From positions 1,657-65,656 of the forward strand of contig JAMWBU010000005.1 in assembly GCA_023819255.1 (NCBI GenBank): a stretch of 64,000 bases of DNA, given 5' to 3'. The stretch is from Candidatus Omnitrophota bacterium. GTDB taxonomy: Bacteria; Ratteibacteria; UBA8468; B48-G9; DTJG01. Of the stretch, positions 44,894 to 63,610 are shown one piece after another. The notes beneath the pieces are model-generated. The model ran no database searches. It was not told the DNA's origin and saw nothing but the letters and a program-made list of their open reading frames with translations. The position numbers and the translations under genes are program-made. The stretch's first letter is position 1; every line of letters begins with the position of its first letter.

Positions 44894-44904
44894 ATTTTCA
44901 GCAT

Positions 44905-47644: not shown

Positions 47645-50377
47645 TCAACCCTTTATCACATTGAAGCATTTTTCACACAATTCTGGATGCTGGCTGAAAT
47701 GTCCAACTGTTTGATGGTGTATCCAGCACCTGGCGCATTTTTTAAGAGCGGTTTTTTTCGCAATGATTTCCAGATTCTCTCCTTCCGCGATTGAGCATTC
47801 AGCAACCATCAGGAGATTTGTAAGATCAGGAAAACTTTCAATAAACGCCTTATTTTCGCCATCTGTTCTAATTTCAATCGCTGCTTCAAGACTGCTGCCG
47901 ATGTTTCCTGCAGACCTTTGCTGTTCAATCTGCTTCAAAACAAGTTTCCTGAAATCAAAAAATCTTGCCCATCTTTCAAGTAATCTGCTGTCAGGTTTTC
48001 TTAATTCAGGCCAGGTCTCAAGAAAAACACTTTCTTTTTTTCTACCTGGCATAAAAGAGTAAGCTTCCTCGCATGTGAAAGAAAGCGCTGGAGCAAGCAT
48101 AATAACAACCGACTTAAGTATTTGATAAATTGCGTATTGAGCAGCCCGACGGCTTGAAGAATTTTTTCCGTGCGTGTATAATCTATCTTTCAGGTAGTCA
48201 AGATAAAAAGAAGACATATCAATATTGCAGAAGTTGAAAATTTCACTTATACCTTTGTGAAAGAGACATTTTTCATAGTAGTTTGAAACATCGCATATAA
48301 GTTGATATGTTCTTTCAAGAGCCCATCTGTCAACCTCAAGCAGTTGGACTTTTTCAAGATCAGGATCGCAGTCGTAAAGATTGCCAAGCATAAACCTCAT
48401 TGTATTTCTGATTGTTCTGTAAACAATTACAAGATGGTCGATTATTTTCTGTGAAATTCTCATATCCTGCTGGTAGTTTTCACTTACTGTCCACAACCTC
48501 AATATGTCAGCGCCATATTTTTTTATAACCTGGTCCGGCGTTATAACATTGCCGAGCGATTTTGACATTTTTCTTCCTTCAGCATCCACAACAAAACCAT
48601 GAGTAACAACTGCTGAAAAGGGCGCTTTCTTCTCAATAGCGCAGGAAGTGATAAGAGATGTCTGAAACCATCCGCGATGCTGGTCGCTGCCTTCAAGATA
48701 CATATCAGCAGGCCATTTCAAATGTTTGTGGTTTTTTAGCACAGCAAGATGGCTTACACCTGAATCAAACCACACATCAAGAATATCCTTTTCTTTTCTA
48801 AAAGGACCCCTGCTGCTACAATAAGGACAAGCAAAATCCTCAGGTAATAGCTCTTTTTCTTCCTTCTCAAACCAGATGTTTGAACCATACTTTCCAACAA
48901 GTTCTGCAACTACTGCAATCGTTTGTTCATTGCATACAGGTTTGCCGCATTTTTCGCAGTAGAACACAGGAAGAGCCACTCCCCACAATCTCTGTCTAGA
49001 AAGGCACCAGTCAGGCCTTAAAGCAACCATGCTTGAGATTCTTGACTGGCCTTCTTCAGGTATCCATTGTGTTTTTTCTATCTCGCTCTGAAGGAGATGA
49101 CGCAGATTGTTATGGTCTATCTTCAAAAACCACTGTTTTGTCGCCCTGAAAATTACAGGCTTTTTACATCTCCAGCAATGCGGATATGAGTGCTGATAAG
49201 GTTCGCTGTGAAGAATAATGCCTTTTTTGCTCAAATTTTCAACAATCAATGGGTCAGCGTCAAAAACAAGTATCCCCTTCCATTCAGGGACTTCTTCTGT
49301 AAATCTTCCCCTTTCATCGACAGGAGATATAACATCAAGATTATATCTGAGCCCTGTTTGATAATCTTCCTCACCATGACCGGTTGCTGTGTGAACGCAG
49401 CCTGTGCCTTCTGCGTCAGAAACATAATCAGCCAGCACAACAATAGATTCTCTTTCAATAAAAGGATGAAGACAGATTGTTTTCTCAAGTTGATAACCCT
49501 TAAAAGAAGCCACTTTTTCGCATTGCCATTTTAGTTTTTCACAGATTACACCAGAAAGCTTTTCAGCGACGATGAAATAACCTGATTGGGTTTTTATCAG
49601 CGAATAATTCAGTTCCGGGTGAACCGCGATAGCCACATTTGCCGGCAGTGTCCAGGGAGTTGTTGTCCATATTAGAAATGATGTGCCCTCTGGCAGATTA
49701 AAATCAACTGAAAACCTTTTTACAGGAAATTTCACATAAACAGAAGGGCTTGTTTCATCCCAGTACTCAACCTCTGCTTCTGCAAGTGCTGTCTGACAGT
49801 GCCAGCACCAGTATATCGGCTTGTACCTCTGGATTATATAACCATTGATGAAAAGTTTTCCAAAACTTTCCACGATTGTCTTTTCATAGATCGGGTTAAG
49901 GGTGAGATATGGATTTTCCCAGTCCCCAAATACTCCAAGTCGTTTGAATTCATCTCTCTGTATTCCCATAAATTTTATTGCATAATCATGGGCTTTTTTT
50001 CTAAAAACGATTATGTCCACAGCATTTTTATCCTTTATCTGCATCTGCTGGAAAACCTGATGCTCAATCGGCATTCCGTGGCAATCCCATCCAGGGACAT
50101 AAGGAGAAAAGAATCCCTGCAAAGATTTGATTTTTACAACTGTGTCCTTCAAAATTTTGTTAAGCGCTGTTCCCAGGTGTATATGTCCATTGGCGTAGGG
50201 CGGCCCATCATGAAGTATAAATGATTTCCCGCCAGAATTCTTTTCAAGAATCTTTTTATAAATGTCCAGTGATTGCCATTTTTCCAAAATTTGAGATTCT
50301 CTTCTGGCAAGGTCCGCTTTCATCGGAAAATCAGTTTTTGGAAGAAGCACTGTTTCTGAATAGTTTTTATCAGCCAT
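47645..50377 (-). CDS. ileS: Isoleucyl-tRNA synthetase
   Basis: 910 aa. HIGH-type motif (PYANGHIHLGTALNKI), KMSKS (KMSKSLGN), CP1 editing domain, C-terminal Zn-finger (CARCW...CEKC). Confidence 0.9.
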   Translation of the reverse strand: MADKNYSETVLLPKTDFPMKADLARRESQILEKWQSLDIYKKILEKNSGGKSFILHDGPPYANGHIHLGTALNKILKDTVVKIKSLQGFFSPYVPGWDCHGMPIEHQVFQQMQIKDKNAVDIIVFRKKAHDYAIKFMGIQRDEFKRLGVFGDWENPYLTLNPIYEKTIVESFGKLFINGYIIQRYKPIYWCWHCQTALAEAEVEYWDETSPSVYVKFPVKRFSVDFNLPEGTSFLIWTTTPWTLPANVAIAVHPELNYSLIKTQSGYFIVAEKLSGVICEKLKWQCEKVASFKGYQLEKTICLHPFIERESIVVLADYVSDAEGTGCVHTATGHGEEDYQTGLRYNLDVISPVDERGRFTEEVPEWKGILVFDADPLIVENLSKKGIILHSEPYQHSYPHCWRCKKPVIFRATKQWFLKIDHNNLRHLLQSEIEKTQWIPEEGQSRISSMVALRPDWCLSRQRLWGVALPVFYCEKCGKPVCNEQTIAVVAELVGKYGSNIWFEKEEKELLPEDFACPYCSSRGPFRKEKDILDVWFDSGVSHLAVLKNHKHLKWPADMYLEGSDQHRGWFQTSLITSCAIEKKAPFSAVVTHGFVVDAEGRKMSKSLGNVITPDQVIKKYGADILRLWTVSENYQQDMRISQKIIDHLVIVYRTIRNTMRFMLGNLYDCDPDLEKVQLLEVDRWALERTYQLICDVSNYYEKCLFHKGISEIFNFCNIDMSSFYLDYLKDRLYTHGKNSSSRRAAQYAIYQILKSVVIMLAPALSFTCEEAYSFMPGRKKESVFLETWPELRKPDSRLLERWARFFDFRKLVLKQIEQQRSAGNIGSSLEAAIEIRTDGENKAFIESFPDLTNLLMVAECSIAEGENLEIIAKKTALKKCARCWIHHQTVGHFSQHPELCEKCFNVIKG

Positions 50378-50860
50378 TTATTTTCCGCCTTTCAGTTTCT
50401 TTATAAGTATCGCTACTCTTTTCCCTGCATCTCTGCATTCTTTCAATGCTTTCTCATCGGGGCTGTCTATTGCGACAGGCCCGTAATGACCGCCTTCTGT
50501 TGTACCCTGGACAATCATTCCGTGTATCAGCATCATCTGGATCATCGAAAGAATTGTTGTCTCATTTCCGCCGGCAATGTTTGCTGATGAAGTAAATGCG
50601 GCTCCGACCTTGCCAATCATCTTTCCATAAAACCTAACTGAATCGTCAAAAAGTTTCTTTATCTCCCACGCTGGAGCACCAAAATATGTTGGAGAACCCG
50701 CGATAATCCCATCATACTCTATCAATTCTTTTGCGTCTGTTTCTTCAACCTTTTTAACTACGGCTTCAACATCTTCAGCAACAACGCCTTTTGCAATCTC
50801 CCGAGCCATTTTTTCAGTGTTTCCGGTCCTCGAATAGTAGACAATCAACACTCTTGCCAT
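50378..50860 (-). CDS. Flavodoxin-like fold NAD(P)H-dependent FMN reductase / flavodoxin family protein
   Basis: 160 aa. RVLIVYYSRTGNTEKMA N-terminus and GSPTYFG motif. Directly abuts the ileS start. Confidence 0.6.
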   Translation of the reverse strand: MARVLIVYYSRTGNTEKMAREIAKGVVAEDVEAVVKKVEETDAKELIEYDGIIAGSPTYFGAPAWEIKKLFDDSVRFYGKMIGKVGAAFTSSANIAGGNETTILSMIQMMLIHGMIVQGTTEGGHYGPVAIDSPDEKALKECRDAGKRVAILIKKLKGGK

Positions 50861-50932: not shown

Positions 50933-53104
50933 CTATTCTGAAAGAAGGACTATTTCATAGTCGTTTATCTGTGGCAACATAAAAGAAAGTCGGTCTTTTT
51001 TTCTCTTTGTTTTGAACGACTTTCCTGAAGAAAGGGATCTGGCTTTATTAAAAAAAGTCCTTACTGACATTTCTATGTTATAAAGTGGAATTATCCTGTC
51101 CATAGGCCGTTTCATATCAGCAGTGACATTCACAAGATGAACAAGCAACCCTTTTTCATTTTTCCTCATTTCAATCGCAAGGCTTCCAGGCGCATTTGTT
51201 TCAATTTGAAGCCCGCCAGGCACAAACTTTTTAATGACAGAGTGGATAAGTTCCTTATGCCAGTCAATATGAAACATGTTGAAACTTTCAAAAACTGGAG
51301 AAGCAAAATAGATAACTTTTCCTCTGCCCTTTTTGGAAATTACAATTGCCGGATATTCACTTACTCCTTTCGGTTGAGAGTATGCATAGTTCAAAGGATT
51401 TAAGTACTTCGCAATTATCTGCGCTTCTTTTTTTGCCTTTATTAAAAGGCCATTCACCGGTCTTGGAATAAGGATATCTTTTTCAATCCCAGCAATATTT
51501 TGAGTTAGAACGATGTAATCCTCTATTCTTGAAGGTCTTAAAACTCCACATATCTGTTCAATCCCGAGAAAATCAAGCCAGCTATTACGATCCACAATCT
51601 CGCCATATTCATTGTAGAATCCTGACTCAAAGTCGCAAAGAAGCGCTCCACCTTTTCTTACATAATCCATTATTACCGCAATCTGACTGTCAGAAAGACA
51701 AGCTGAATTAGGAAGAATAAGAAGTTTCAACTTTTTAAGTGTCTCCTGATTGAGATACTCGTCCCATAATACCCTGACAGGAATATGGGCAAAATTACAT
51801 AAATCAAGGCATCCATGATTTTCATTGTTCAGTATTTTCTCGCTCACCTCTCTTTGTTTCTTTATGTCTTCTATCAACTTGCTGCCGGTATCCATAATCA
51901 AGCCCTGCTCTTTCCCAGAACCTGCCCCATAACATAACCCCTTATGCGAGGAAATATAGTAATACAGTGTTTTATTTGATATTAAAACTCCTGTTTCAGC
52001 TGCTGAAACACTGCCTTCGATAAATTTTTCATTTTTTTCAATCAATGCTGCTGTCTTCAAGCCGCCTATCGCATACTTTTTTGTTTTTTCAATGGCTGGA
52101 TAAAAAATCGCAAACCAGGTATTTGAACCTCCTGCTGTTGCCTGCGCAATGGCAGTTGAAAATTCAGCCTCAACAAGCCCAACATAGTGCCAGGTTGAAA
52201 GTGTATGATGGGTAAAAACCACAGACGGATTTTTCCCGGCAGAAAGAAACCGTGAAAGATTTAATGTGGTATAAGGCGAGATATAATATTCTGAGCAATG
52301 GAAAAAATCCTCTGCTCCAGTGAATGTCTGATAATTTTCCATCCTTGCGGCATCATAACCAACAAGAATGTTTGAAGCGCTGAACCCTCCGCCATTAAGA
52401 AACATAACGGCGTCTTTTTTTATTTTCTTTGCTGTTTCGCTGGCGTCTTTCATAAAGTCAGCCCAGCTCTGCGAACGAAATTCAGCAAACTTTTTCCAGC
52501 AGGGATCAGTCCAGTCAAGAAATTTTGGAAGATGCTGGCATCCTGTCATTCTTTTGAATTTCTCCTGGCAATGCCGACAGTAACAAACCCCTGGATAAAC
52601 AACCGGCCCGTCAAGAAAACATCCATCCACGCCTGTCTTCATCACCTCCGCAATCATTTCAAACGCCCAGTTTCTCCACGGGCCGTTAACGCAAAAAGTA
52701 GTACCATTGCCATAAAGAGGTTTTTTCCTTCCATAGGGTATGCCATCTTCACAGAGCTGTTCCCATCCAGGATTTTTTTCTGCAAACTCGTAGCTATACC
52801 AGTGCATATTTATGTAAGCAATGACATAAAGGTTATGTTTTTTCGCGACAGGCACATATTCTCTTAAAAGATCTCTTGAACCGAGCACTGGTAATTTTTC
52901 AAATTTATCAGAGTTAAATGTTGTGAGGTATCCTGTTCCTGGCGCGCATCCTGGTGTTGCCATAATCCATTCGCAGTTTGCCTTCCACAATTTTCTTGTT
53001 TCTCTTGCGGTCTTATTCAGGTCTGATTTCAAGAATGGTGAAAAATCGAAAATATAATCCCGGCGAAACATTCTAACAGGTCTATCCCACCAGTTTCTGA
53101 CCAT
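50933..53104 (-). CDS. Putative glycoside hydrolase (GH42-like/GHL6-type TIM barrel with beta-galactosidase trimerisation-like domain)
   Basis: 723 aa, cytoplasmic. N-terminal TIM-barrel-like region with Cys cluster (CRHCQEKF) reminiscent of GH42 Zn site. Assignment tentative. Confidence 0.35.
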   Translation of the reverse strand: MVRNWWDRPVRMFRRDYIFDFSPFLKSDLNKTARETRKLWKANCEWIMATPGCAPGTGYLTTFNSDKFEKLPVLGSRDLLREYVPVAKKHNLYVIAYINMHWYSYEFAEKNPGWEQLCEDGIPYGRKKPLYGNGTTFCVNGPWRNWAFEMIAEVMKTGVDGCFLDGPVVYPGVCYCRHCQEKFKRMTGCQHLPKFLDWTDPCWKKFAEFRSQSWADFMKDASETAKKIKKDAVMFLNGGGFSASNILVGYDAARMENYQTFTGAEDFFHCSEYYISPYTTLNLSRFLSAGKNPSVVFTHHTLSTWHYVGLVEAEFSTAIAQATAGGSNTWFAIFYPAIEKTKKYAIGGLKTAALIEKNEKFIEGSVSAAETGVLISNKTLYYYISSHKGLCYGAGSGKEQGLIMDTGSKLIEDIKKQREVSEKILNNENHGCLDLCNFAHIPVRVLWDEYLNQETLKKLKLLILPNSACLSDSQIAVIMDYVRKGGALLCDFESGFYNEYGEIVDRNSWLDFLGIEQICGVLRPSRIEDYIVLTQNIAGIEKDILIPRPVNGLLIKAKKEAQIIAKYLNPLNYAYSQPKGVSEYPAIVISKKGRGKVIYFASPVFESFNMFHIDWHKELIHSVIKKFVPGGLQIETNAPGSLAIEMRKNEKGLLVHLVNVTADMKRPMDRIIPLYNIEMSVRTFFNKARSLSSGKSFKTKRKKDRLSFMLPQINDYEIVLLSE

Positions 53105-53235: not shown

Positions 53236-54291
53236 ATGACAGAATTATGTAAATTCTTTTGCATAATAACCTTCGCAATTTTATCCCCCCTGTATGCACA
53301 TCTTTGTGATAATGTTTTCAGACAGGCAGATAAACTAATTGTTAAACCTGAGATTTACAACATTATCGTTAAAGATAAAGCGACCTTTAAAATTTTTCTT
53401 CAGAACAACATGGATAGAGCCATAGCAGAAATAAAACTTATCGCTGAAAGCCCTGCTTTTGATTTCCAGATCTACCCAATGAAGATGTCTGTTCCAAAGG
53501 ACCAGAGAGTTTATTTTGAGGTGACTATGACCCCGAAACCAAATACATCTTCTGGAAACTATCCTGTAACATTCAGACTCGTCGGCGGCGGAAGAGAATT
53601 CAAAAGCTTCAATCTTGATGTTTCTGGAGAAGCGGCTAACAGGGTTCAGGAGAAAAAGGAAACGCCAATGTCTGAAAATAAATCCAGCCCTGAGACGCAA
53701 CCTTCCAGAAAAAAAGAGTCAGCGCTTCTTTCAGTTAAAAAAATATTCCAGCCGCCAAAGATAGACGGTAGACTTATGGAAGAATGCTGGAAAAACGCTG
53801 GAGTTGCTGGAAATTTTTCCTGTCCCGGACAGGGAAAACCCGTGTATCAAACAGTTGGACTTTTCACCTACGACGCGAGTTCGCTATACCTGGGGTTTTA
53901 TTGCAGGGACAATGAACCTGAAAAGATTTCCGATAAAGACAGAATTGAGATACAGATATCATCAGATCCTTCAGGAAAAACCTATTATTCCATTGTTCTA
54001 ACAGGTGACAGAAAAATGACATTCAAGAAAGTCAGGTCTTCTGGCGAAGTGCAGGACCTTCAGCCAGCAAATCTGGTCTATGGAATGTACAGGGGCATCA
54101 ATGCCTGGATGATTGAAATCGGCATTCCTTTTTCTTCAATAGGAACCAGAACCCCTGAACCAGGCGAGACCTGGTTATTGAAAATTATTCGCACAAAATC
54201 AACCGGTTATATTGAGGAAAGTTACTGGGCTATGGATGCTTCATCCTACCATCAGGAAAAAGGTTTCGGACAGATTGTTTTTGCTCCATAG
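53236..54291 (+). CDS. Secreted protein with C-terminal CBM9-like/DOMON-like carbohydrate-binding domain
   Basis: Start moved to MTELCKFFCIITFAILSPLYA (signal peptide). C-terminal PKIDGRLMEECWKNAG...YDASSLYLGFYCRDNEP matches the CBM9-like PxIDG...W...YD..LY pattern. Confidence 0.45.
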   Translation: MTELCKFFCIITFAILSPLYAHLCDNVFRQADKLIVKPEIYNIIVKDKATFKIFLQNNMDRAIAEIKLIAESPAFDFQIYPMKMSVPKDQRVYFEVTMTPKPNTSSGNYPVTFRLVGGGREFKSFNLDVSGEAANRVQEKKETPMSENKSSPETQPSRKKESALLSVKKIFQPPKIDGRLMEECWKNAGVAGNFSCPGQGKPVYQTVGLFTYDASSLYLGFYCRDNEPEKISDKDRIEIQISSDPSGKTYYSIVLTGDRKMTFKKVRSSGEVQDLQPANLVYGMYRGINAWMIEIGIPFSSIGTRTPEPGETWLLKIIRTKSTGYIEESYWAMDASSYHQEKGFGQIVFAP

Positions 54292-54303
54292 ATTATTAAC
54301 AAG

Positions 54304-54846
54304 ATGAAAACATTTCTTATTTTTCTCATACCAATCCTGTATTGTCTTGCTTATGGTGCGGACCAGATACAGATAGAATTTGAATATCCTTCCATAACAG
54401 GCGACTTTTATGTCGCTGGAACAGTGTTTTTCCCTCCGTCGGCAGCTCCTGATTTAAAAAAAATACTTGTTATGGATAAAGACACAAGAAAGGAAATTCC
54501 ATCAAAAATCGTGGTACAGGACAATTGGCCTGATGGCTCGGTTTTGAGTGCAGAGATAGTTTTTCCTGCCAACAGCCAGAAAAAAGGAAAATACATCATT
54601 TTTTACGGAGGTGATGTGGAAAGAAAAAAATCTTTTGTTGAAGCGGCTGTTCTTCCAACAGTATCTTTTATTGTACCTGGCGCGGGTAACACAGTAGAAA
54701 ATATGGATGTGTCTGTCGGGCAGATAAATGTGAGAGTTGACAGAAGTACAAACATCAGGTACTGGTGGTATATCCTGCCTGTCTTCTTTTTGATTCTTAT
54801 CACTGTGTTAAGGACATTACGAACAATAAGGATGCAAAAGTTATGA
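54304..54846 (+). CDS. Hypothetical exported protein with C-terminal membrane anchor
   Basis: 180 aa. Signal peptide, beta-rich body, C-terminal TM (WWYILPVFFLILITVL). Confidence 0.3.
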   Translation: MKTFLIFLIPILYCLAYGADQIQIEFEYPSITGDFYVAGTVFFPPSAAPDLKKILVMDKDTRKEIPSKIVVQDNWPDGSVLSAEIVFPANSQKKGKYIIFYGGDVERKKSFVEAAVLPTVSFIVPGAGNTVENMDVSVGQINVRVDRSTNIRYWWYILPVFFLILITVLRTLRTIRMQKL

Positions 54847-55883
54847 AGAAAATTACGATGACAAGAAGAATTGTACAGGTTTTTTGTTTGATTCTTCTTG
54901 TATATGGCGGATACATATTCAAGGAATGGAAACAATCACCTGAAACCGAACAATCTCTTTTTCCTGCATTGAAAGCGCCAGCAGGAAGCATTTCTATCAC
55001 TAAACTTGAGAAAGGAAGCATACTCTGGCCATCAGGGGCAACTCCTGTGATCGAAAACTATCCGCCATCTCTTGTGTGCAGGTTTAACCCGAAAGGGGGT
55101 ATGTTTAAGGCATGCATCCTGCACTTTTTTTCTGAAAACCTCACCTGGCAAACCCAGTTAAAATATCTATTGCCTTATATTACGCTTTTTATTCTGCTAT
55201 GTTTTCTTCTCGGAAGAATGTGGTGCGGATGGGTTTGTCCCATAGGAACTACAGGCGACTTCCTCACATTCTTAAGAAGGAAAATGAATATCCCGGTGAA
55301 AAGGTTTCCACATAATTTCAGAATTAATCTCTCTTTTACTGGCTATGGACTTATGGCGATAGCCCTTACGATTTCCACAATAATAGGTATGCCCAATTTT
55401 GCGAGATACCAGTGTTACTGGTTTCTGCCTTACTGTCAGATATGCCCTGCGCGGCTCATCTGTCCTTTGTTCGGCTTAATAAGGCCGAACTGGAAGGATT
55501 TTTCAACATCCATCACAACAACCTTTACACTTCTTGCATGGATTGTTCTTGGGCTCTTTATTGCCGCCTTCTATTTTGGAAGACGGGTCTGGTGTCATAT
55601 GTGTCCTGTTGGCCTGATTAACTCATGGTTCAATAAAGGAGCTGGCGTTGAACTTCACAAAAAACCCATCAAATGCATTAAGTGCGGATATTGCGCTGAC
55701 GCCTGCCCTATGGGACTTACAAAAATGTACGAAATGGACAAAGATGGCATTTACAACCAGAATTCCTGTATAATGTGCCTGCGATGTGTTGAGGTATGCC
55801 CGAGAAAAGGATGCCTCAGTGTAAAATTCTTTGGCAAAGGGATAAGGATTAAGGATTTTTTCAGGAGAAAAAATGCAGAATAA
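54843..55883 (+). CDS. NapH/MauN-like membrane-bound polyferredoxin (4Fe-4S binding)
   Basis: Start at MKKITMTRR. TM helices with CPxG-type motifs (WCGWVCPIGT, VWCHMCPVG) and two C-terminal CxxCxxCxxxCP ferredoxin motifs. Confidence 0.6.
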   Translation: MKKITMTRRIVQVFCLILLVYGGYIFKEWKQSPETEQSLFPALKAPAGSISITKLEKGSILWPSGATPVIENYPPSLVCRFNPKGGMFKACILHFFSENLTWQTQLKYLLPYITLFILLCFLLGRMWCGWVCPIGTTGDFLTFLRRKMNIPVKRFPHNFRINLSFTGYGLMAIALTISTIIGMPNFARYQCYWFLPYCQICPARLICPLFGLIRPNWKDFSTSITTTFTLLAWIVLGLFIAAFYFGRRVWCHMCPVGLINSWFNKGAGVELHKKPIKCIKCGYCADACPMGLTKMYEMDKDGIYNQNSCIMCLRCVEVCPRKGCLSVKFFGKGIRIKDFFRRKNAE

Positions 55884-57117
55884 ATTTCTTGATCGTTATG
55901 GCAGAGCCGTCTTAAAAGGATTTACTTCCACCCGGTCCATCAAAAGCAACGCTAATTCTGAATTGCTTGAATATTCCAGCAGATCAAAAAATTCTTTAAT
56001 GAAAAAATTTTATCAAGACATTGAGGATTTTGAAACAGGAAAGTTTCTCTATCCAGAAAAACCGGTTGTTGGTTACTTTTGCAGCCTCGTGCCTGAAGAA
56101 CTAATTCTTGCCTGCAACCTGCACCCTGTGAGGTTGTGTTGTGAAGAAAACCTCTGGACCCAAGCAGGTGAAGAGATTATTCCAGGAGATGTATGCCCGG
56201 TGGTTAAATCTATATGCGGGAAGTTTTACAACCAGATGTATGACAGATTTGATCTTGTAGTTGTTCCTGGAAGCTGCGACCCAAAAACGAAACTTGCGGA
56301 GTTGCTTTCTCCTTTGAAAGAAGTGTATTTTCTCGATCCCGGAAGAGATTGCGATTATCTAAAAAACGCTGACATCTGGGGAGAAAAATACACAAAGTTT
56401 TTTGATTTTCTAAAAGAAAGATTTCATTGCTCGTCAGGAAGAAAACATTTGCTTTCCGCGTGTAAGAAAACAAACGCGCGCACAGAAATTTTTAGAAAGA
56501 TTTATCAATTTCGAACAAGAAATCCCGAAGCGATAAACAGCTTCGATTATTACATAATGATTTACGCTTCTTTCTTCATGGATATAGAGATTTGGAACAA
56601 TCTTGCTGAGAACGTTTACAGAGAAGCGCTTGAAACCAGAGAAATTTGCAAAAATCCAAAAATCCTTCTTGCTGGAACGCCGGTTATATTTCCAAACTTC
56701 AAGATTATCGATGTTATTGAACAAGCAGGATTGTCCCTGGCGGCTGACATTCAGTGCACAACTTTTGGACGATTTTATAATCCAGTTGAAATAGATGAAG
56801 ATACCGAGTCGGGTATTATCAGGGCGTTGAGCCTGAAAGATATTGCTGGAAGCATCTGCCCCTGTTTGTTAAACCTTGAAAAATTAGTCAATCTCATTGT
56901 CGATGCGGTAAGCCAGCATAATCTTGATGGAGTAATATATTACAATCTGAGATTGTGCCAGGTGTTTGACATCCAGACAGCAGTCATAAGACAGGCGCTG
57001 AAAGAAAAAGACATTCCATTTATTTCAATAAAAACAGACCTTGGCAACCAGGATACCGGACAGTTAAAAACAAGATTGGAAGCATTCAGGGAGATGATTG
57101 AGTCGCGCAGAAACTAA
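55873..57117 (+). CDS. 2-hydroxyacyl-CoA dehydratase family protein (HgdB/BcrC/YjiM-like), solitary subunit
   Basis: 414 aa. VGYFCSLVPEELILA N-terminal signature of PF06050 plus conserved Cys (CPVVKS, PGSCDPK) for Fe-S ligation. Confidence 0.65.
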   Translation: MQNKFLDRYGRAVLKGFTSTRSIKSNANSELLEYSSRSKNSLMKKFYQDIEDFETGKFLYPEKPVVGYFCSLVPEELILACNLHPVRLCCEENLWTQAGEEIIPGDVCPVVKSICGKFYNQMYDRFDLVVVPGSCDPKTKLAELLSPLKEVYFLDPGRDCDYLKNADIWGEKYTKFFDFLKERFHCSSGRKHLLSACKKTNARTEIFRKIYQFRTRNPEAINSFDYYIMIYASFFMDIEIWNNLAENVYREALETREICKNPKILLAGTPVIFPNFKIIDVIEQAGLSLAADIQCTTFGRFYNPVEIDEDTESGIIRALSLKDIAGSICPCLLNLEKLVNLIVDAVSQHNLDGVIYYNLRLCQVFDIQTAVIRQALKEKDIPFISIKTDLGNQDTGQLKTRLEAFREMIESRRN

Positions 57118-57128
57118 AGGAGGCTTTT

Positions 57129-57884
57129 TTGAAAGCAGGGATAGACATTGGTTCAGTGATGACAAAGTGCGTTGTTGTGAAGGAAGAAAAAATCATATCA
57201 AAGGCGATAGCAAGATCAGGCGCAATGCCTGAAAAAATAGCAGAAAAGGTGCTGCTGGATGCCTTGCAGAGTGCTGAAATTCAGTTTTCTCAAATAGAAA
57301 AAATCGTCTCGACCGGCTATGGCAGGTACATTTTCTCACCGTCTCACTCAGTTATAACAGAAGTTTCAGCGGCGGCAAGAGCCGCTTTTTTCCTTTCTGG
57401 ACGGAACCAATGTCTTGTCATTGATGTAGGCGGACAGGATACAAAAACGATAGAAGTTGATAAAAACGGTGAGGTTGTGGATTTTTTGATGAACGACAAG
57501 TGCGCCGCAGGAACAGGGAGGTTTCTTGAAATGATGGCAAATGTTTTAGAAACAGATATTTATGGGCTCGGGACATTCTCATTGCAGGCAGAAAAGCCGG
57601 TGTTGATAAGTTCGACATGCAGCGTTTTTGCGGAAAGCGAAGTTGTTTCCCTTATCGCCCATAATGAAAAAAAGGAAAATATTGCTGCAGGCCTTATCAA
57701 TGCCATTGCTTCGAGAATTTCAACAATGATGAACCATTTCAACAGAAAACTTCCTGTTATTTTTTGTGGAGGCGGTGCAATTATACCAGGGCTTAAGGAA
57801 AGCATTGAAAAAATAAGCAATAGACCAATTCAGATTCCCGAAAACCCGCAGTTTGTTGTTGCTTTTGGCGCCGCGCTCAGTTGA
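57129..57884 (+). CDS. CoA-substrate-specific enzyme activase (HgdC/BcrAD/YjiL-like ASKHA ATPase)
   Basis: 251 aa. AGIDIGSVMTKCVVV phosphate-1 motif, GGQDTK, and the two Cys for the bridging [4Fe-4S] (DKCAAGTG, STCSVF). Confidence 0.75.
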   Translation: MKAGIDIGSVMTKCVVVKEEKIISKAIARSGAMPEKIAEKVLLDALQSAEIQFSQIEKIVSTGYGRYIFSPSHSVITEVSAAARAAFFLSGRNQCLVIDVGGQDTKTIEVDKNGEVVDFLMNDKCAAGTGRFLEMMANVLETDIYGLGTFSLQAEKPVLISSTCSVFAESEVVSLIAHNEKKENIAAGLINAIASRISTMMNHFNRKLPVIFCGGGAIIPGLKESIEKISNRPIQIPENPQFVVAFGAALS

Positions 57885-57939
57885 CACAACCAAAAAGTTT
57901 TAATAAAATTATGTCGTTTCTTTTTAACAGGAGGAAACA

Positions 57940-58125
57940 ATGAAAGTAAAAATAGATGAAAGCACATGCACAGGATGCGGTCTTTGCGCAGATAACTGCC
58001 CTGAGGTATTTGAACTGGGAGATTCTGTAGCAAAGGTCATTGCTGACCCTGTACCTGCCGAAAAGGAAGAATGCGCAAAAGAGGCAGCAGAAAATTGTCC
58101 GGTAGATGCTATATCCATCGAATAA
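57940..58125 (+). CDS. Small single-cluster [4Fe-4S] ferredoxin
   Basis: 61 aa. CTGCGLCADNCP plus distal C...CP (ENCPVDAISIE), like Pyrococcus/Thermotoga-type ferredoxins. Confidence 0.7.
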   Translation: MKVKIDESTCTGCGLCADNCPEVFELGDSVAKVIADPVPAEKEECAKEAAENCPVDAISIE

Positions 58126-59692
58126 GACGTACTTGGCAAAATTTGGGAATGCCTTTATACTTACAATTTTTCTTGCAGGTTGTTCCGCCAACCATCAGGA
58201 AAGGGCGCAGAAACACCTGTTGATTTCATTGCGGGAATACGAGAAAAGCATCTATGAAAATCCCGAAGACGAATCCTTGCAGAAAAAATATTATGCGCTT
58301 GCTTTAATTGGACTTGGCGAAACACAGGCAAAAACAGAGCTTTTTCTCATTTACAGGGCAATAAATAAAGAAAAAGAAGCTAATTTTTTACTGAGCCAGC
58401 TTATTTCAAAAAATGCTGATGAAGAATGTTCAAAATATCTTGAGAAAAAGCTTGATGTTGTTTATAACCTCCAGCAGCGCATCTATATTTACCAGGCCCT
58501 GACATACCTGAATCCTCAAAATCCCTCTTTTTTTGATAAACTTGGACGGTTGTATCTCGGCATAGAAAAAACACCTGATGGAATCGAAGCGCTTTCAAAA
58601 TCGATTGAGCTCGGCAACAGAAACCCTGATTCGGTTAATTATCTTGTAAGGGCTTATGAAAAAGAAAAAAGGTATCAGGACGCTGTTTTTCTGCTTCAAA
58701 GGATTCTTTCTGAAAAAGAAGATTTGAAATTCAGAAATCTTCTTGCCAATGTATACAAAAAGCAGGGAAAAAAGGACCTGTATCTGGCTGAAATTGAAAA
58801 ATTAAATAAAAAAACGCCTCTTATAGCATTCAAAAAACCTGAGATTCAAAAGATTGAGAAAAAACCATCAGAACCAGAAAAAATATTATTAAGCCAGAGG
58901 ATAGATGTGGAACCATACAAATTCCTCGTTGTGGATAAATCATCGCAAAATCTCAGTGTCTATCAGTTTGATGGGATAGAGATAAAAAAAATCCTGCAGC
59001 TCCCCTGCACAACAGGGAAAAACATGGAAGACAAAAAAAGGCAAGGAGACCTCGCAACGCCCGAAGGGACTTTTCTTATAAAGTTTTCTATTCCCGGGGA
59101 AAAGCTCGACCCAAAGTATGGTGCAGGTGCATATGTTCTTGATTTCCCGGATTATCTTTCAAGGAGAATGGACAAGGACGGAAGCGGTATCTGGCTTCAC
59201 GGCACGCCAATTGAAAGGCCTCCATATAACAGCGAAGGTTGCGTGGTTGTAAGTGACAAGGACTTTCTTGCTCTGCAGCAGTATATAGAACCAGGCAGAA
59301 CCTACATACATATTGTAAAACAAATAGAAGACACCAATCTTTCTGACTTACTCCTTGTCTGGAAAACAGTACAGGGGTGGAAACAATCATGGGAAAGAAT
59401 CGACATTGAAGGATATCTTTCTTTTTATGACGAAAATTTCAGAAGCGATGGAAAAGATAAAAAAACATGGGCTGAGTACAAAAAAAGGGTGAATAGAAAC
59501 AAGCAATTTGTGAAAGTTGAATTAGAAAGACCTGTTATTGTCCCTTATGGCAACACAGGGTTTGGATATGTTTTTCTTCTGGATGCAATACAGAGATATG
59601 AATCAAACAATCTTAGAAGCATAACCCGAAAAAATATCTATCTGGCAAAAAATAATGGCGGTTATAAAATCATAGGCGAACTTGTGAAATAA
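58106..59692 (+). CDS. L,D-transpeptidase (YkuD) domain lipoprotein with TPR-like N-terminal region
   Basis: 528 aa. Lipobox-like LAGCS. C-terminal catalytic HGT...SEGCVVV motif of YkuD. Confidence 0.55.
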   Translation: MLYPSNKTYLAKFGNAFILTIFLAGCSANHQERAQKHLLISLREYEKSIYENPEDESLQKKYYALALIGLGETQAKTELFLIYRAINKEKEANFLLSQLISKNADEECSKYLEKKLDVVYNLQQRIYIYQALTYLNPQNPSFFDKLGRLYLGIEKTPDGIEALSKSIELGNRNPDSVNYLVRAYEKEKRYQDAVFLLQRILSEKEDLKFRNLLANVYKKQGKKDLYLAEIEKLNKKTPLIAFKKPEIQKIEKKPSEPEKILLSQRIDVEPYKFLVVDKSSQNLSVYQFDGIEIKKILQLPCTTGKNMEDKKRQGDLATPEGTFLIKFSIPGEKLDPKYGAGAYVLDFPDYLSRRMDKDGSGIWLHGTPIERPPYNSEGCVVVSDKDFLALQQYIEPGRTYIHIVKQIEDTNLSDLLLVWKTVQGWKQSWERIDIEGYLSFYDENFRSDGKDKKTWAEYKKRVNRNKQFVKVELERPVIVPYGNTGFGYVFLLDAIQRYESNNLRSITRKNIYLAKNNGGYKIIGELVK

Positions 59693-60985
59693 TCACTTTT
59701 TCAGAAAAACCTCAATCACAGGCACACAAACATCTGGTTTCTGCACAGGAAGCAACAGGGTTGTCATAGAAATTTCCTCATCCTGATTTCTGTTTCTCAA
59801 ATATGGATATCTTATCTTTTGAACAGGAATTTCTGACGCATCGTTAAGAAGCTGAGCGTATTCAATCCTTTCTCCAAAATCAACCTGCAAAAACCTGTAC
59901 GGCCATGAAAAGATGTGGATGTAAAGACGATTTGTTTCTGGATTATATGTCAGTCTGCAATCTTTTGGCGGTTTGAATTCATCAGGCGCCTGAGTGCAAC
60001 CGTAAATAGATCTGCTGTGCCTCTTCATCCACTCACCTATGCCAGTAAGTCGCTCTGTTGCTCTACTGTCAAACTCTCCTCTTGCGGTTGGACCAACATT
60101 CAAAAGCAAGTTTCCATTTTTGCTCACAATATCGATAAGCATTTTCACAAGGACATCTACACTCTTCCATGAAGCCTCGTCCCTGTGGTATCCCCAGGAG
60201 CCTGAAAATGTGTGGCATGCTTCCCACACAACAGGTTTTCCATCAACAGCGATGGCTTCTGGCACATCAATCTGTTCAGGAGTAAGAAAATCCGCCTCTT
60301 CAGGAAGGTCAAGCCTGTTGTTTATAAGAATATGCGGCTGAACAGATCTTATCATCTTGACAAGATTTTCGCTATCCCAGTCTTGTCTGCCCTTGCCAAT
60401 CCATCCAGCAGGCGTGTTCGGACCAGACGGATAACTGAAATCGCACCAGAGAATGTCAATCTTACCATAATTTGTGAGAAGCTCTTTTATCTGATTATGA
60501 AGGTACTGTCTGTATTTACTCATATCCCGGTATTTATTGAGATTATCACGGTCAGGATGATTTCTCAATGGATGAAGGCTGTCAATGGTAAAATCTGGAT
60601 GATGCCAGTCAATAAGTGAATAATAAAATCCGATCTTCAACCCATTTTCTCTGAAAGCATCTACAAACTCTCTTATTAAATCTCTTTTCGCAGGAGTATT
60701 TGTCGCCTTATAATCAGTATACTTGCTATCAAACAGGCAAAAACCATCATGATGTTTTGTGGTTATAACAGCATATTTCATACCTGTCTGCTTTGCCATT
60801 TTTGCCCATTGAGAAGCATCAAAAAGGTCAGGATTGAAATTCTCGAAATAGATATCATATTTTTCATCAGGTATTTCTTCGCGATTTTTTACCCACTCAT
60901 GCCTCGCAGGCATAGCATATATTCCCCAGTGAATAAACATGCCAAATCTATCATGGACAAACCATCTTGAATCGCCTTTAGTCAT
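59693..60985 (-). CDS. Alpha-L-fucosidase (GH29)
   Basis: 430 aa. RFGMFIHWGIYAMP...AVITTKHHDGFCLFDS is the GH29 catalytic-nucleophile region. Cytoplasmic (no signal peptide). Confidence 0.75.
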   Translation of the reverse strand: MTKGDSRWFVHDRFGMFIHWGIYAMPARHEWVKNREEIPDEKYDIYFENFNPDLFDASQWAKMAKQTGMKYAVITTKHHDGFCLFDSKYTDYKATNTPAKRDLIREFVDAFRENGLKIGFYYSLIDWHHPDFTIDSLHPLRNHPDRDNLNKYRDMSKYRQYLHNQIKELLTNYGKIDILWCDFSYPSGPNTPAGWIGKGRQDWDSENLVKMIRSVQPHILINNRLDLPEEADFLTPEQIDVPEAIAVDGKPVVWEACHTFSGSWGYHRDEASWKSVDVLVKMLIDIVSKNGNLLLNVGPTARGEFDSRATERLTGIGEWMKRHSRSIYGCTQAPDEFKPPKDCRLTYNPETNRLYIHIFSWPYRFLQVDFGERIEYAQLLNDASEIPVQKIRYPYLRNRNQDEEISMTTLLLPVQKPDVCVPVIEVFLKK

Positions 60986-61031: not shown

Positions 61032-62693
61032 TCAATCTTCACCGGCAACAGGAAGAATGATATGACTTGGCCAGCTGGAATCATGGAAGATTGACTGATG
61101 CGCAATCTGAAATTTTGTATCTGTTGCAGGGTCTCTACCTGTATTAAGGTTTCTGTCCCACAAAGGAAAATTGCTGCTTGTTATGTAAACACAAATTTTA
61201 TGGCCCTTTTTGAACAGGTTGGATACAGGCATCATCTCAATATGAAACTCATAAATTTTTCCTGGTTTGATAAAAACCGGCTCACCCTGGATGTCATTCC
61301 TAAATCTTGCCCTTATTATGCCCTCCGATATGTTTATTGATCTTCCATCAGGATAAACATCTGCAAGTTTTATAACAAAGTCAGTGTCTATCGCTGAAGA
61401 AGATGCAAAAAGTATAAATGAAATTGGACCTGTAATTTCAATATCATTTTTCAAAACACTGGATTTGTATACAAGCACATCTTTTCTTTTCTCAAGTATT
61501 CTCTGATCATATGGACCGGGCTTTGCAATTTCATAAAGCCCGGGGTTGTAGGGACCTATGGAATGGTTTCCTCCAATTGTAGGCAGCGGGTTTTCAGGGT
61601 CATAATCGTAATAATCAGGATTCTCATCCTGAGGATGTTTTCTGTTAAGAAACCCGCCTTTATGGATATACCACTTCTGGTATTTAATCCTGGCAGGTGG
61701 CCACTGGTATTCATCCTGCCATATATTTTTACCCATCATAAAAATTCTTATTGGCGCTTTTTGAAATTCACAGGGTTTTTTTTCGTGTAAAAGAAAGTCG
61801 AGCCACCTGACGGTCGCATCGTTTTCTTCTAACGATTCAGGCCCGAAATCCACCTCGCCAAGAACTGTTGATGGATTTATGCCATGAGTCCATGGACCGA
61901 TAATTATTCTGTGGCTTTCAGCAATTTCTTTTGTTTTGCCGTGTTTCTTAATCTGTTGAAAAATATCAAGCATTTGAGAAGGGTAATAATCATACCAGCC
62001 GCCAATCAATAAAACTGGCATCTGAAACTTTTCATAGTGAGATAAAAGGTTGAACCTTTTCCAGAAATGCCCGTACACATTATTTGAGACAAAATCCCTG
62101 TACGATTTTACAATTCCTGATCCACTCTTTGCGTCAAGCTCTATGATTGGCAGGGATTTGACCAGCTCTGCAACATCAAATATAGGCATTGTTTGAGCTT
62201 CTGAAGTTCTGCTATTTGTTTCAAAGCAGAGCCAGCTCCAGGTTAGACCAAGTGAAAAAGCGCCGTTACAGAAGTATCCCTGCTTCCAGCAATCGCCTGT
62301 CATAAACTGAGGAACGATCGTAGTTAAGTGTTTACTACCTGATATTGCCGCAAAAAATTGGGTTGCTGCAAGATATGAAGCACCATACATTCCAATTTTC
62401 CCGTTACACCAGGGCTGTTTTGTAATCCATTGCAGTGTGTCATACCCGTCTTTTTCCTCATTGATAAAAGGATAAAAAGAACCGTCAGAAGCATATCTTC
62501 CCCTGCAGTCCTGCGAAACAAAAGCAATGCCTCTGTTAAGAAAATCGACAGGATTGACGAAATTGCGATTATAGGCAGTCCTTACAAGAACAACCGGCCA
62601 AGAACCTTTTTCATCAGGAAGAAAGACATTTGTCGCAAGATCAATTCCGTCTCGCATCTTTACTCTGATGTTCCTTTCTACTTTTATTCCCAT
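61032..62693 (-). CDS. CocE/NonD family hydrolase (X-Pro dipeptidyl-peptidase S15-like alpha/beta hydrolase)
   Basis: 553 aa. N-terminal VKMRDGIDLATNVFLPDEKGSWPVVLVRTAY and GASYLA nucleophile elbow. C-terminal beta-sandwich. Confidence 0.65.
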   Translation of the reverse strand: MGIKVERNIRVKMRDGIDLATNVFLPDEKGSWPVVLVRTAYNRNFVNPVDFLNRGIAFVSQDCRGRYASDGSFYPFINEEKDGYDTLQWITKQPWCNGKIGMYGASYLAATQFFAAISGSKHLTTIVPQFMTGDCWKQGYFCNGAFSLGLTWSWLCFETNSRTSEAQTMPIFDVAELVKSLPIIELDAKSGSGIVKSYRDFVSNNVYGHFWKRFNLLSHYEKFQMPVLLIGGWYDYYPSQMLDIFQQIKKHGKTKEIAESHRIIIGPWTHGINPSTVLGEVDFGPESLEENDATVRWLDFLLHEKKPCEFQKAPIRIFMMGKNIWQDEYQWPPARIKYQKWYIHKGGFLNRKHPQDENPDYYDYDPENPLPTIGGNHSIGPYNPGLYEIAKPGPYDQRILEKRKDVLVYKSSVLKNDIEITGPISFILFASSSAIDTDFVIKLADVYPDGRSINISEGIIRARFRNDIQGEPVFIKPGKIYEFHIEMMPVSNLFKKGHKICVYITSSNFPLWDRNLNTGRDPATDTKFQIAHQSIFHDSSWPSHIILPVAGED

Positions 62694-62710: not shown

Positions 62711-63610
62711 TTGATATATAATATCACAATGCCATCGGTGAAAAAATACATTCAAAAAATTTTTGATGGGACAGGGTTTCCAGTAAAAATCGCTCATGCG
62801 CGCGGATATGGTGAAACTTTTCCTTCGCACAGATTACACTATCATACCGCAGATCTTGAAATGCAGTTCATTAAAAAAGGGGAAGGATTTTATTTTATTA
62901 AGAATAGAAGATATGCTGTTAAACCATCATCTGCCCTTGTTATCCATAGCAATGAAGTCCATCATTTTTTTTCAGGCGGTGCAAAAAACTTTATTGACAA
63001 AACTTCTGTTATGCTGTACCCGGGTATCTTCAAAAAAACATTTATTGAAAAACACATTTCGTCCTTGATCTATTGCAACAAAAACTTTCCACATCAGATT
63101 TTTTTCAGCGATAAAGAGTTTTCAATTATTGAATTCTTGCTTGATGCCGCAGATAGCGAAATAAAACAGCAAAATAAATTCTGGAAGGAGTCAACAACAA
63201 ACTTCATTGAACAGATTTGCCTTTTGCTTCTGCGCAGGATAGAAGAAGGTCAAGCAATCAACCGGCAAGCAAATACAAACAAAATAGTGCAGTCAGCAAT
63301 TTCTTATATCGAACAAAACTTTGCCCGAGAAATCACCCTTAAGAGTTTAAGTAAGGAACTTAATGTTTCCCGGTTTCATTTAAGCCATCTTTTCACTCAA
63401 TATGCCGGGGTGTCATTTAAAACATATTTGATACGGAGAAGGGTTGAAGAAGCCAAAAAGCTTTTGAAAGAAACCGATTTGAAAGTTTCAGGGATATCTG
63501 GAAGATCTGGTTTTTCTGACATAAGCTCTTTTGTAAAATCGTTCAAAAGAATCACAGGCGCAAGCCCTGCCTCATACCGCAAAATTTTCCAGCAGCTCAG
63601 CAAAAAATAA
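62711..63610 (+). CDS. AraC family transcriptional regulator (cupin sensor + AraC HTH)
   Basis: 299 aa. C-terminal dual HTH (KSLSKELNVSRFHLSHLF...FSDISSFVKSFKRITGASPASYR). Confidence 0.8.
   Translation: MIYNITMPSVKKYIQKIFDGTGFPVKIAHARGYGETFPSHRLHYHTADLEMQFIKKGEGFYFIKNRRYAVKPSSALVIHSNEVHHFFSGGAKNFIDKTSVMLYPGIFKKTFIEKHISSLIYCNKNFPHQIFFSDKEFSIIEFLLDAADSEIKQQNKFWKESTTNFIEQICLLLLRRIEEGQAINRQANTNKIVQSAISYIEQNFAREITLKSLSKELNVSRFHLSHLFTQYAGVSFKTYLIRRRVEEAKKLLKETDLKVSGISGRSGFSDISSFVKSFKRITGASPASYRKIFQQLSKK

Follow-up and report, generated by a model that had tools for sequence, protein, structure and literature searches.

A divergent double-cubane cluster protein encoded with a NapH-type membrane polyferredoxin and two extracytoplasmic proteins in a conserved five-gene cassette

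Within a 64,000-nucleotide stretch of a Candidatus Omnitrophota contig (JAMWBU010000005.1), referred to here as the window, we analyzed a run of plus-strand genes encoding a NapH-type membrane polyferredoxin, a protein with the HGD-D fold seen in 2-hydroxyacyl-CoA dehydratases and an archerase-type ATPase, or activase, together with the genes on either side (Table 1). The window proteins are ~97–98% identical to those on a contig of a Tibetan Candidatus Omnitrophota metagenome-assembled genome (MAG; locus L001). An earlier note on this DNA had described a four-gene module at 54843–58125 that ended in a small ferredoxin gene, and open reading frame (ORF) listing together with profile searches confirmed each of the four plus-strand ORFs. 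The gene content of that proposal therefore stands, but its edges do not: on the left, two conserved upstream genes for extracytoplasmic proteins (genes 1 and 2) had been missed, and on the right the ferredoxin probably lies outside the module. The conserved unit that we delineate comprises five genes, g1-g2-g3-g4-g5, at 53236–57884, and is read as an operon encoding a putative membrane-coupled double-cubane cluster protein (DCCP) system. The stop codon of gene 2 and the start codon of gene 3 overlap as ATGA, genes 3 and 4 overlap by 11 nt, and an 11-nt gap separates gene 4 from gene 5; promoter and terminator scans returned sites no more numerous than in shuffled controls. We hold the identities of genes 3–5 and the reality of the five-gene cassette with high confidence.

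Table 1. Genes of the cassette and the ferredoxin gene that follows it, in window coordinates.
Feature	Position	Strand	Product length and matches
Gene 1, secreted protein	53236..54291	+	351 aa from inner Met start
Gene 2, signal peptide, extracytoplasmic beta-rich domain and C-terminal transmembrane anchor	54304..54846	+	180 aa
Gene 3, NapH-type membrane polyferredoxin	54843..55883	+	346 aa; Fer4_5 and dicluster Fer4 (Pfam)
Gene 4, DCCP-like protein, HGD-D fold	55873..57117	+	414 aa; PF06050, 233 bits
Gene 5, archerase-type ATPase/reductase ("activase": DCCP-R, HgdC or HadI-like)	57129..57884	+	251 aa, TTG start; TIGR00241, 248 bits
Small single-cluster ferredoxin	57940..58125	+	61 aa; Fer4_15/Fer4_13

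What had seemed anomalous in the earlier note was that a single HGD-D-type gene stands beside an archerase-type ATPase without an HgdA-like partner. The observation itself held: tblastn with the gene 4 protein found only itself in the 64-kb window, and no second HGD-D gene or HgdA-like subunit adjoins gene 4 in the loci of its close relatives (L001–L021, described below). Its best NCBIfam model by a wide margin was NF040772 (double-cubane-cluster-containing anaerobic reductase), at 234.5 bits, below the equivalog cutoff of 350, whereas other equivalogs scored far lower (HadC, 83.6 bits, cutoff 700; BcrC, 65.6, cutoff 421; BzdN, 40.9, cutoff 454; HadB, 26.9, cutoff 750). Matches among PDB sequences were to DCCP (7YYL_C/6ENO_A, E 1.5e-43), HadC (1.9e-18) and BzdN (2.5e-10), with PF06050 spanning residues 70–409 and the 6ENO/7YYL alignment residues 62–409, in keeping with a two-domain HGD-D fold of the FldB/C type.

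DCCPs share a seven-cysteine motif, CX19CX18-19CX29CX166-170CX32-34CX32C, in which six cysteines ligate an [8Fe-9S] cluster and the seventh lies at the opening above it (PMC7317905). In alignment with the Carboxydothermus hydrogenoformans protein (DCCP_Ch), this motif is complete in gene 4 (C70, C89, C108, C135, C295, C329, C362): C70, C108, C135, C295, C329 and C362 are the predicted cluster ligands, and C89 is the seventh, non-ligand cysteine. All cluster cysteines are thus present in a protein for which the loss of cysteine ligands had been considered in the earlier note; the six ligand positions are Cys in 96/96 aligned relatives, Escherichia coli YjiM included, and the seventh cysteine is retained in the window clade of DCCP-like proteins. 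The spacings are 18, 18, 26, 159, 33 and 32 residues, three of which are shorter than published (X18, X26 and X159 versus X19, X29 and X166-170). The gene 4 protein also has an N-terminal extension of ~60 residues, similar in length to the one by which the channel of DCCP_Ch is narrowed, and an overall length like that of DCCP_Ch. Its C-terminal segment is near-identical to that of DCCP (DxxxxDxGQLKTRxEAFxEMI), where it contacts the ATP-dependent reductase, DCCP-R, in the 7YYL complex (PMC9351452).

On these features we assign gene 4 to the DCCP family (cluster IV of IPR010327) rather than regarding it as an orphan dehydratase subunit. We count it as a separate, divergent subfamily with a predicted cluster type, not as an equivalog, because its NF040772 score falls below the cutoff, its identity to known members is ~26–29% (26% to YjiM and ~27–29% to the canonical DCCPs P0074 and P0084, compared with 39% between YjiM and P0074) and its cysteine spacings are shorter. 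A neighbour-joining tree likewise set the window clade apart from canonical DCCPs, from YjiM and from P0093 and P0094, which the Joint Genome Institute (JGI) names benzoyl-CoA reductase (BCR) subunit C. DCCPs are homodimers with one [8Fe-9S] cluster per monomer and work with an ATP-dependent reductase (PMC7317905), so the missing HgdA-like partner is the family norm and not an anomaly. The DCCP/DCCP-R pair is in this sense already known, and with it the "solo subunit" that had been the central puzzle of the locus is explained. The proposal that the genes follow the arrangement of the uncharacterised E. coli YjiM/YjiL pair was right insofar as YjiM/YjiL is a relative within the same DCCP sequence cluster, but YjiM is a distant one on another branch, and the arrangement is not uncharacterised: the C. 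hydrogenoformans prototype of the DCCP/DCCP-R system has crystal structures and in vitro activity (PMC7317905, PMC9351452).

Gene 5, in turn, is the predicted ATP-dependent reductase (DCCP-R) of gene 4. Its PDB matches were HadI (8.5e-52), MbdQ (1e-49), DCCP-R (7yyl_E, 9e-42) and HgdC (1.2e-41), and its motifs NDKCAAGTGRF and SSTCSVFAESE align with those of HadI, keeping both cluster-cysteine motifs, in which C125 and C164 are predicted to ligate the dimer-bridging [4Fe-4S] cluster. Public annotations of the gene 4 family read "2-hydroxyacyl-CoA dehydratase family protein" or "BcrC/BadD/HgdB".

Such annotations, the Pfam HGD-D domain held in common and the fact that HadI is the best PDB match of the activase would fit a classical 2-hydroxyacyl-CoA dehydratase or benzoyl-CoA reductase whose second subunit is encoded elsewhere and whose activase acts only as a catalytic initiator. 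We give this explanation almost no credence, given that the HadC, HadB, BcrC and BzdN equivalog models reach just 27–84 bits against cutoffs of 421–750, that gene 4 has the six or seven double-cubane cysteines in place of the three-cysteine pattern of HAD subunits, that there is no HgdA, HadB or BzdO-like gene in the window and no second HGD-D gene beside gene 4 in L001–L021, and that gene 4 clusters away from P0093 and P0094.

We examined the conservation of the locus by scanning one-genome-per-species contigs with an alignment of the DCCP-like clade, which returned 80 loci, and by mapping the window proteins onto each; a second, independent scan covered metagenome contigs starting from gene 1. 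Merging loci at ≥98% identity gave 41 distinct loci, 26 of which had enough flanking DNA to be informative. Gene 1 was present in 25 of these, gene 2 in 23, the NapH-like gene in 24, the activase in 25 (each time directly downstream of gene 4) and the ferredoxin in 2. The order g1-g2-g3-g4-g5 was recovered both from the gene 4 scan and, on contigs long enough, from the gene 1 metagenome scan, and all 25 complete loci were collinear on one strand, down to ~33% identity of the DCCP-like protein. Gene-neighbourhood conservation, proposed in the earlier note as a way of checking the module, is hence borne out for the NapH-like, DCCP-like and activase genes, which are conserved together among the informative loci. 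The NapH-like protein was the most conserved of the five in 24/25 complete loci, with a median identity to the window protein of 71% versus 46–58% for the other four.

The close clade L001–L021 (34–97% identity) spans Omnitrophota, Ratteibacteria, TA06 and unclassified bacteria, along with a MAG labelled Iainarchaeum. Among those of its loci that extend far enough, almost all have a same-strand NapH-like gene immediately upstream of gene 4, and all have the activase immediately downstream. Two further loci reached through NapH-like homologs at 47–50% identity (L081 and L083; DCCP-like proteins ~33% identical) have the same five-gene order. All-against-all ORF clustering across 24 loci returned the five genes and overlapping shadow ORFs, and no other conserved neighbours. 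By comparison, 58/59 canonical DCCP loci (L022–L080) lack a NapH-like gene, the exception, L037, having one weak opposite-strand match, and a gene-1-type gene was found in none of the 59. The distributions of this DCCP-like clade, of the NapH-like subfamily and of the family of gene 1 are narrow and match one another, and in the metagenome scan gene 1 was always accompanied by a DCCP-like gene where flanking DNA was present.

Two of the more distant cassettes are elaborated. In L083 the NapH-like and the activase genes are each present as two paralogs, behind which a 94-aa ferredoxin and a DsbD_2 membrane protein are encoded, and 4-nt overlaps run across g2, g3a, g3b, g4 and g5a. Its duplicated activases recall class I benzoyl-CoA reductases, whose two ATPase subunits differ from each other. 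L021 likewise has two NapH-like genes, along with a DsbD_2-like protein (by sequence inspection) and a protein in which a signal peptide is followed directly by His. These features belong to the stretches 5982–11896 of L083 and 2887–3498 of L021; a DsbD_2/CcdA-like membrane gene adjoins each cassette, and its product may keep outer-face cysteines reduced.

Together, these patterns suggest that the five products are probably coupled, both physically and functionally. A contrary explanation is that two independent systems are merely co-inherited: an envelope module of genes 1 and 2, to which the NapH-like protein may or may not belong, and a soluble cytoplasmic DCCP/DCCP-R pair using ordinary ferredoxin or flavodoxin, for which the small ferredoxin could be the reductant in this genome. 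The canonical DCCP/DCCP-R is indeed a soluble two-component system in vitro (PMC7317905), with no NapH-like neighbour in 58/59 loci; one lineage (L014/L094, L019) has the arrangement g1-g4-g5, with neither a NapH-like gene nor gene 2 nearby; L101 is rearranged to g4-g1-g2-g3; and a ferredoxin gene does follow the activase in the window and its closest relatives. We nevertheless consider independence unlikely, since order and strand are kept in 25/25 complete loci down to ~33% DCCP-like identity, start and stop codons overlap at g2/g3 and g3/g4 in the window and by 4 nt in L083, gene 1 was not found without a DCCP-like gene where the DNA is present, the narrow distributions of the three families match, and the ferredoxin is absent from 24/26 informative loci.

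The membrane component is gene 3, whose best NCBIfam match was NapH (NF007013), at 73.5 bits against a cutoff of 234. Its AlphaFold2 model (predicted local distance difference test score, pLDDT, 83.9) has four long helices (3–30, 106–123, 157–181 and 223–245) that correspond to transmembrane helices assigned by hydropathy (10–28, 106–124, 163–181 and 228–246). Hydropathy and the distribution of positive charges predict that the N-terminus, the TM2-TM3 loop and the C-terminal domain are cytoplasmic, as in NapH topology, which would put the C-terminal 2x[4Fe-4S] ferredoxin domain on the cytoplasmic side. Invariant cysteines on that side form C128-x3-C132-P, C251-x2-C254-P (thus CX2CP rather than CX3CP) and two CxxCxxCxxxCP motifs (278–289 and 309–320). 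Foldseek against the PDB matched the C-terminal ferredoxin domain alone, and found no solved homolog of the membrane part.

On the predicted outer face of gene 3, loop 1 (76 residues) holds C79 and C91 and loop 3 holds C198xxC201P, four cysteines that are nearly invariant. This outer-face Cys4 set occurs throughout the DCCP-linked NapH-like subfamily, both L021 copies included, and is absent from E. coli NapH and other distant Fer4_5 proteins; the subfamily is discrete, with scores falling from 265 to 137 bits at its edge. Compared with the E. coli nap operon, gene 3 adjoins genes 1, 2, 4 and 5 instead of napG or napA, and its presence in 24/26 informative loci makes the NapH-like polyferredoxin, already recognized in the earlier note, a specific and conserved partner. 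We also considered a twin-arginine translocation (Tat) signal in its N-terminus (TRRIVQ) and rejected it; E. coli NapH has the RRxxQ feature too, which makes it a trait of the family that gives no evidence of export by Tat. Gene 3 shows no recognisable quinol-site signature.

Upstream, the mechanical ORF call for gene 1 and the NCBI annotation of an identical protein (P0182) both start at 53131, giving 386 aa, while its homologs all begin at an inner Met (53236) that is the first residue of a signal peptide; the annotated start is thus probably 35 codons too early. In 40/40 aligned family members an invariant His comes immediately after the Sec signal peptide and is itself followed by L-C-D-N-V-F/Y-R-Q; 38/40 have A, G, S or C at position −1. 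Since the signal peptide ends before this His, the predicted mature protein starts His1-x-Cys3 (His-Leu-Cys-Asp-Asn; 53299–53313), and we propose it as a candidate N-terminal metal site. Lipidation at Cys3 was weighed and rejected, as the preceding His-Leu is not a lipobox and the signal peptidase I pattern fits a cut before His.

The AlphaFold2 model of gene 1 (pLDDT 85.9) comprises an immunoglobulin (Ig)-like beta-sandwich, a disordered linker and a C-terminal domain of CBM9/DOMON fold, with low confidence in the N-terminal segment (pLDDT ~50). Foldseek matched the C-terminal domain to CBM9 (1i82), BACUNI_03838 (4jpq) and the haem-b subunits EbdC (2ivf_C) and NxrC (7b04_C), and the N-terminal domain to generic Ig-like structures alone. 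The resemblance to EbdC and NxrC raised the possibility of haem in the C-terminal domain, which we rejected because no Met, Lys or His is invariant there. Profiles of the gene 1 and gene 2 families retrieved nothing from PDB sequences, even at E up to 5, and Pfam and NCBIfam gave weak matches alone: CBM9_1 matched the window protein weakly and exceeded its cutoff in the L011 homolog, and CopC matched one of 40 gene 1 family members weakly (E 0.029).

An exhaustive HMMER search with the gene 1 N-terminal domain returned 93 representatives among 1.84 billion proteins. Distant relatives keep a signal peptide followed by His-x-Cys (AHVCDD, AHLCHD, AHLCNN and similar), and several are single polypeptides ending in a beta-strand and a membrane anchor. 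Gene 1 belongs to what is, by these sequence criteria, a small, unannotated family in which the mature N-terminus is predicted to carry an invariant His-x-Cys. Some family members (P0277–P0336) have HEAT repeats, Ig domains in tandem or a membrane anchor at the C-terminus. At 9887–12550 (minus strand) in L021, the MAG labelled Iainarchaeum (DPANN archaea), an 887-aa secreted protein encoded beside the DCCP-like and activase genes has HVCSD after its signal peptide and many Cys-rich CxxC-type repeats, and ends in an Ig-like domain and a membrane anchor.

Gene 2 has hydrophobic segments at its N-terminus and C-terminus and no invariant Cys or His; weak matches to the RIFT-barrel domain PF19501 occur in 9/14 homologs (best E 4.7e-4). 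Its C-terminal strand and anchor are homologous to the C-termini of four single-polypeptide gene 1 relatives (E 1e-9 to 1e-6), a comparison in which 0/258 negatives matched. This natural fusion of a gene 1-type domain to the anchor speaks for joint action of the gene 1 and gene 2 products on the outer side of the membrane.

The small ferredoxin, which the earlier note had taken to be a dedicated electron donor, behaves as a neighbour instead. It was found in the closest relatives alone, and as a conserved feature its role as dedicated donor was rejected on its absence from 24/26 informative loci. In L002 and L003, opposite-strand genes (349 and 356 aa) separate it from the activase, and it still overlaps the start of the YkuD/TPR/Cds6_C gene that follows it in the window (58106–59692). 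Because it stays with the YkuD gene when split from the activase, and occurs in 2/26 loci, we do not count it as part of the conserved module; ferredoxin and YkuD/TPR/Cds6_C gene probably form a separate unit. An 11/12 sigma-70-like match (TTGACA-17-TAAAAT) lies just 5′ of the ferredoxin at 57881–57909, which is weak evidence given that the scan as a whole was at the level of shuffled controls. The ferredoxin could still serve as a local reductant of the activase. A 160-aa flavodoxin encoded at 50378–50860 (minus strand), adjoining ileS (47645–50377), is another plausible soluble reductant; its gene stays with ileS, not with the cassette, in L004 and L006.

How might these parts work together? 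In the reading that we favour, tentatively and at somewhat less than an even chance, electrons flow inward and the double-cubane cluster is the terminal catalytic site. The five products would form one membrane-bound electron-transfer complex that electrons enter through the NapH-like protein, from quinol or from the outer-face His/Cys proteins. The cytoplasmic ferredoxin domain of the NapH-like protein would replace soluble ferredoxin or flavodoxin as reductant of the activase, whose ATP hydrolysis would drive electrons onto the very-low-potential [8Fe-9S] cluster, and that cluster would reduce a small cytoplasmic substrate. A catalytic role for the cluster is suggested by DCCP biochemistry, the only such work on a homodimeric DCCP having shown small-molecule reduction at the cluster (PMC7317905), by the retained seventh cysteine and N-terminal extension, and by the ferredoxin-type clusters from which archerases normally receive electrons (PMC7317905). 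The inward model needs only ferredoxin-type docking onto the activase.

Several points weigh against this reading. Quinol (menaquinol, ~ −74 mV) or a His/Cys metal site is a poor donor for a ferredoxin-level acceptor, and inward electron movement opposes the membrane potential. We know of no NapH/NosR/RdhC-type protein documented to pass electrons inward to an enzyme of the cytoplasm, the precedent in the family being extracytoplasmic targets. The inward model also leaves two strongly conserved secreted proteins without a clear role. Gene 4 is only ~26–29% identical to canonical DCCPs and YjiM, scores below the equivalog cutoff and has three short spacings; the g1-g4-g5 lineage does without g2 and g3 nearby; and the case for coupling is drawn wholly from synteny, gene overlap and co-conservation.

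Electrons might instead run outward through the same complex, a direction that we consider rather doubtful. Soluble ferredoxin or flavodoxin would reduce the activase, and ATP would charge the [8Fe-9S] cluster as a low-potential electron store, as in BzdN; the NapH-like wire, with an additional cluster or metal site at its outer Cys4 set, would then carry electrons across the membrane to gene 1, anchored by gene 2, whose His1-x-Cys3 would form a hitherto unrecognised extracytoplasmic metal centre, and there they would reductively activate or drive an extracytoplasmic reaction. The cassette would in that case be an ATP-boosted transmembrane electron exporter. As ATP is unusable outside the cell, a reaction there could be energised in no other way than by boosting the electron in the cytoplasm and conducting it outward. 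The NapH/NosR/RdhC group is understood to serve extracytoplasmic redox targets, and an outward flow gives a role to every conserved part, namely C79/C91/C198/C201, the gene 1 His-x-Cys and the gene 2 anchor. The DsbD_2/CcdA-like genes beside the distant cassettes of L083 and L021 could keep the outer cysteines reduced, the nearby flavodoxin and ferredoxin genes offer possible activase reductants, and BzdN, a subunit of class I benzoyl-CoA reductase, has an [8Fe-9S] cluster that stores and transfers electrons as a cofactor and is not the active site (PMC11971306).

Against export, the low potential would be lost on the way through four or five ordinary Fe-S clusters unless all of them were unusually negative, and no route is known by which electrons leave a homodimeric DCCP for a third protein. 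Gene 4 keeps the seventh, non-ligand cysteine beside the opening of the cluster, which would be expected of a catalytic rather than a relay cluster, and metal binding by gene 1 is deduced from sequence alone, in a segment modelled at pLDDT ~50.

Outside the cassette, the flanking genes encode carbohydrate- and peptide-degrading enzymes, a GHL6/GH42M-like hydrolase, an alpha-L-fucosidase and an S15 X-Pro dipeptidyl peptidase (among 50933–53104, 59693–60985 and 61032–62693 on the minus strand and 62711–63610 on the plus strand), along with an AraC-type regulator. These neighbours are probably unrelated to the cassette, because they are common to its closest relatives only. Farther upstream, at 43331–46542 (minus strand), the carbamoyl-phosphate synthase large chain is split into adjacent genes of 545 and 520 aa. 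Both halves carry preATP-grasp and ATP-grasp domains, and their genes lie downstream of the one for the small chain (46514–47605).

Double-cubane cluster proteins were reportedly discovered in 2018. Crystal structures and nitrogenase-like in vitro chemistry have been described (PMC7317905, PMC9351452), and their physiological function is stated to be unknown (PMC9351452; PMC11971306). Full-text literature searches found no paper linking double-cubane proteins with NapH or polyferredoxins, and none describing such a gene cluster in Omnitrophota or connecting Omnitrophota with 2-hydroxyacyl-CoA dehydratase; papers that name both NapH and double-cubane, or both polyferredoxin and 2-hydroxyglutaryl-CoA dehydratase, draw no link between them. 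What appears to be new is a divergent DCCP subfamily joined to a NapH-type membrane protein and two extracytoplasmic proteins, one of them from the His-x-Cys family. The cassette would give the DCCP family its first physiological context, with testable partners and a location at the membrane and envelope, and any mechanism must account for two conserved extracytoplasmic proteins. Were electrons indeed exported, a homodimeric DCCP would have a physiological role for the first time, no earlier case would exist of a reduction outside the cell being energised by cytoplasmic ATP, and anaerobes would have a new family of N-terminal-histidine metalloproteins. Omnitrophota, Ratteibacteria and TA06, in which the cassette is widespread, are lineages whose energy metabolism is poorly understood and for which we know of no cultured representatives.

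Parts of the cassette have counterparts among known systems. The histidine-brace extracytoplasmic copper proteins CopC/PcoC, YcnI, lytic polysaccharide monooxygenases and PmoB offer a general analogy for gene 1, in which Sec cleavage likewise precedes an invariant His followed by an Ig- or cupredoxin-like beta-sandwich. Distant gene 1 relatives further resemble YcnI in combining a signal peptide, His1, an Ig domain and a C-terminal membrane anchor. Homology to histidine-brace proteins was undetectable for gene 1 at the level of sequence or fold (PDB profile search, Foldseek), and an invariant Cys at position 3 is, to our knowledge, not a feature of known histidine braces.

Gene 3 shares with NapH, NosR/NosH, RdhC/PceC and CcoG four transmembrane helices with both termini inside, CxxxCP-type motifs after TM2 and TM4, and a C-terminal cytoplasmic 2x[4Fe-4S] domain. 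It is 22% identical to E. coli NapH, which lacks the 76-residue outer loop 1 and the outer Cys4; moreover, no nap, nos or rdh genes lie near gene 3, and its partner is a cytoplasmic DCCP system rather than a periplasmic reductase.

Genes 4 and 5 each fall in the same superfamily as the corresponding HGD-D component or ATPase of BzdNOPQ, HadBC/HadI and HgdAB/HgdC, with which they would share the ATP-driven injection of low-potential electrons, and BzdN also carries an [8Fe-9S] cluster (PMC11971306). Whereas BzdNOPQ, HadBC and HgdAB are two-paralog heterodimers with the CoA-ester site in the second subunit, there is one gene here, and no partner gene was found in the window or beside it in L001–L021. 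E. coli YjiM/YjiL shares the DCCP sequence cluster, the seven-cysteine motif (PMC7317905) and the pairing of DCCP-like and archerase genes. YjiM, designated "class II" with a suggested larger substrate (PMC7317905), differs in being 383 aa long and lacking the N-terminal extension, and the two proteins align from YjiM residue 34 and window residue 64 onward. The genes around yjiM are yjiN, ytiA and yjiK, with no NapH-like or gene-1/gene-2 homolog there, and YjiM groups with canonical DCCPs away from the window clade, relating it to gene 4 at the level of the DCCP family only.

From the canonical DCCPs themselves, gene 4 is set apart by its ~27–29% identity, its score below the NF040772 cutoff, its separate branch and its shorter Cys spacings, and the window pair by belonging to a cassette of five genes that also encodes a membrane polyferredoxin and two secreted proteins. 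Its likeness to DCCP/DCCP-R of C. hydrogenoformans (CHY_0487/CHY_0488; 6ENO, 7YYL) nonetheless extends to the HGD-D fold, the six ligands and seventh Cys, a similar length, the N-terminal extension, the C-terminal reductase-docking segment and an adjacent archerase-type ATPase, and no gene for a second paralogous subunit was found in the window or, in L001–L021, next to gene 4.

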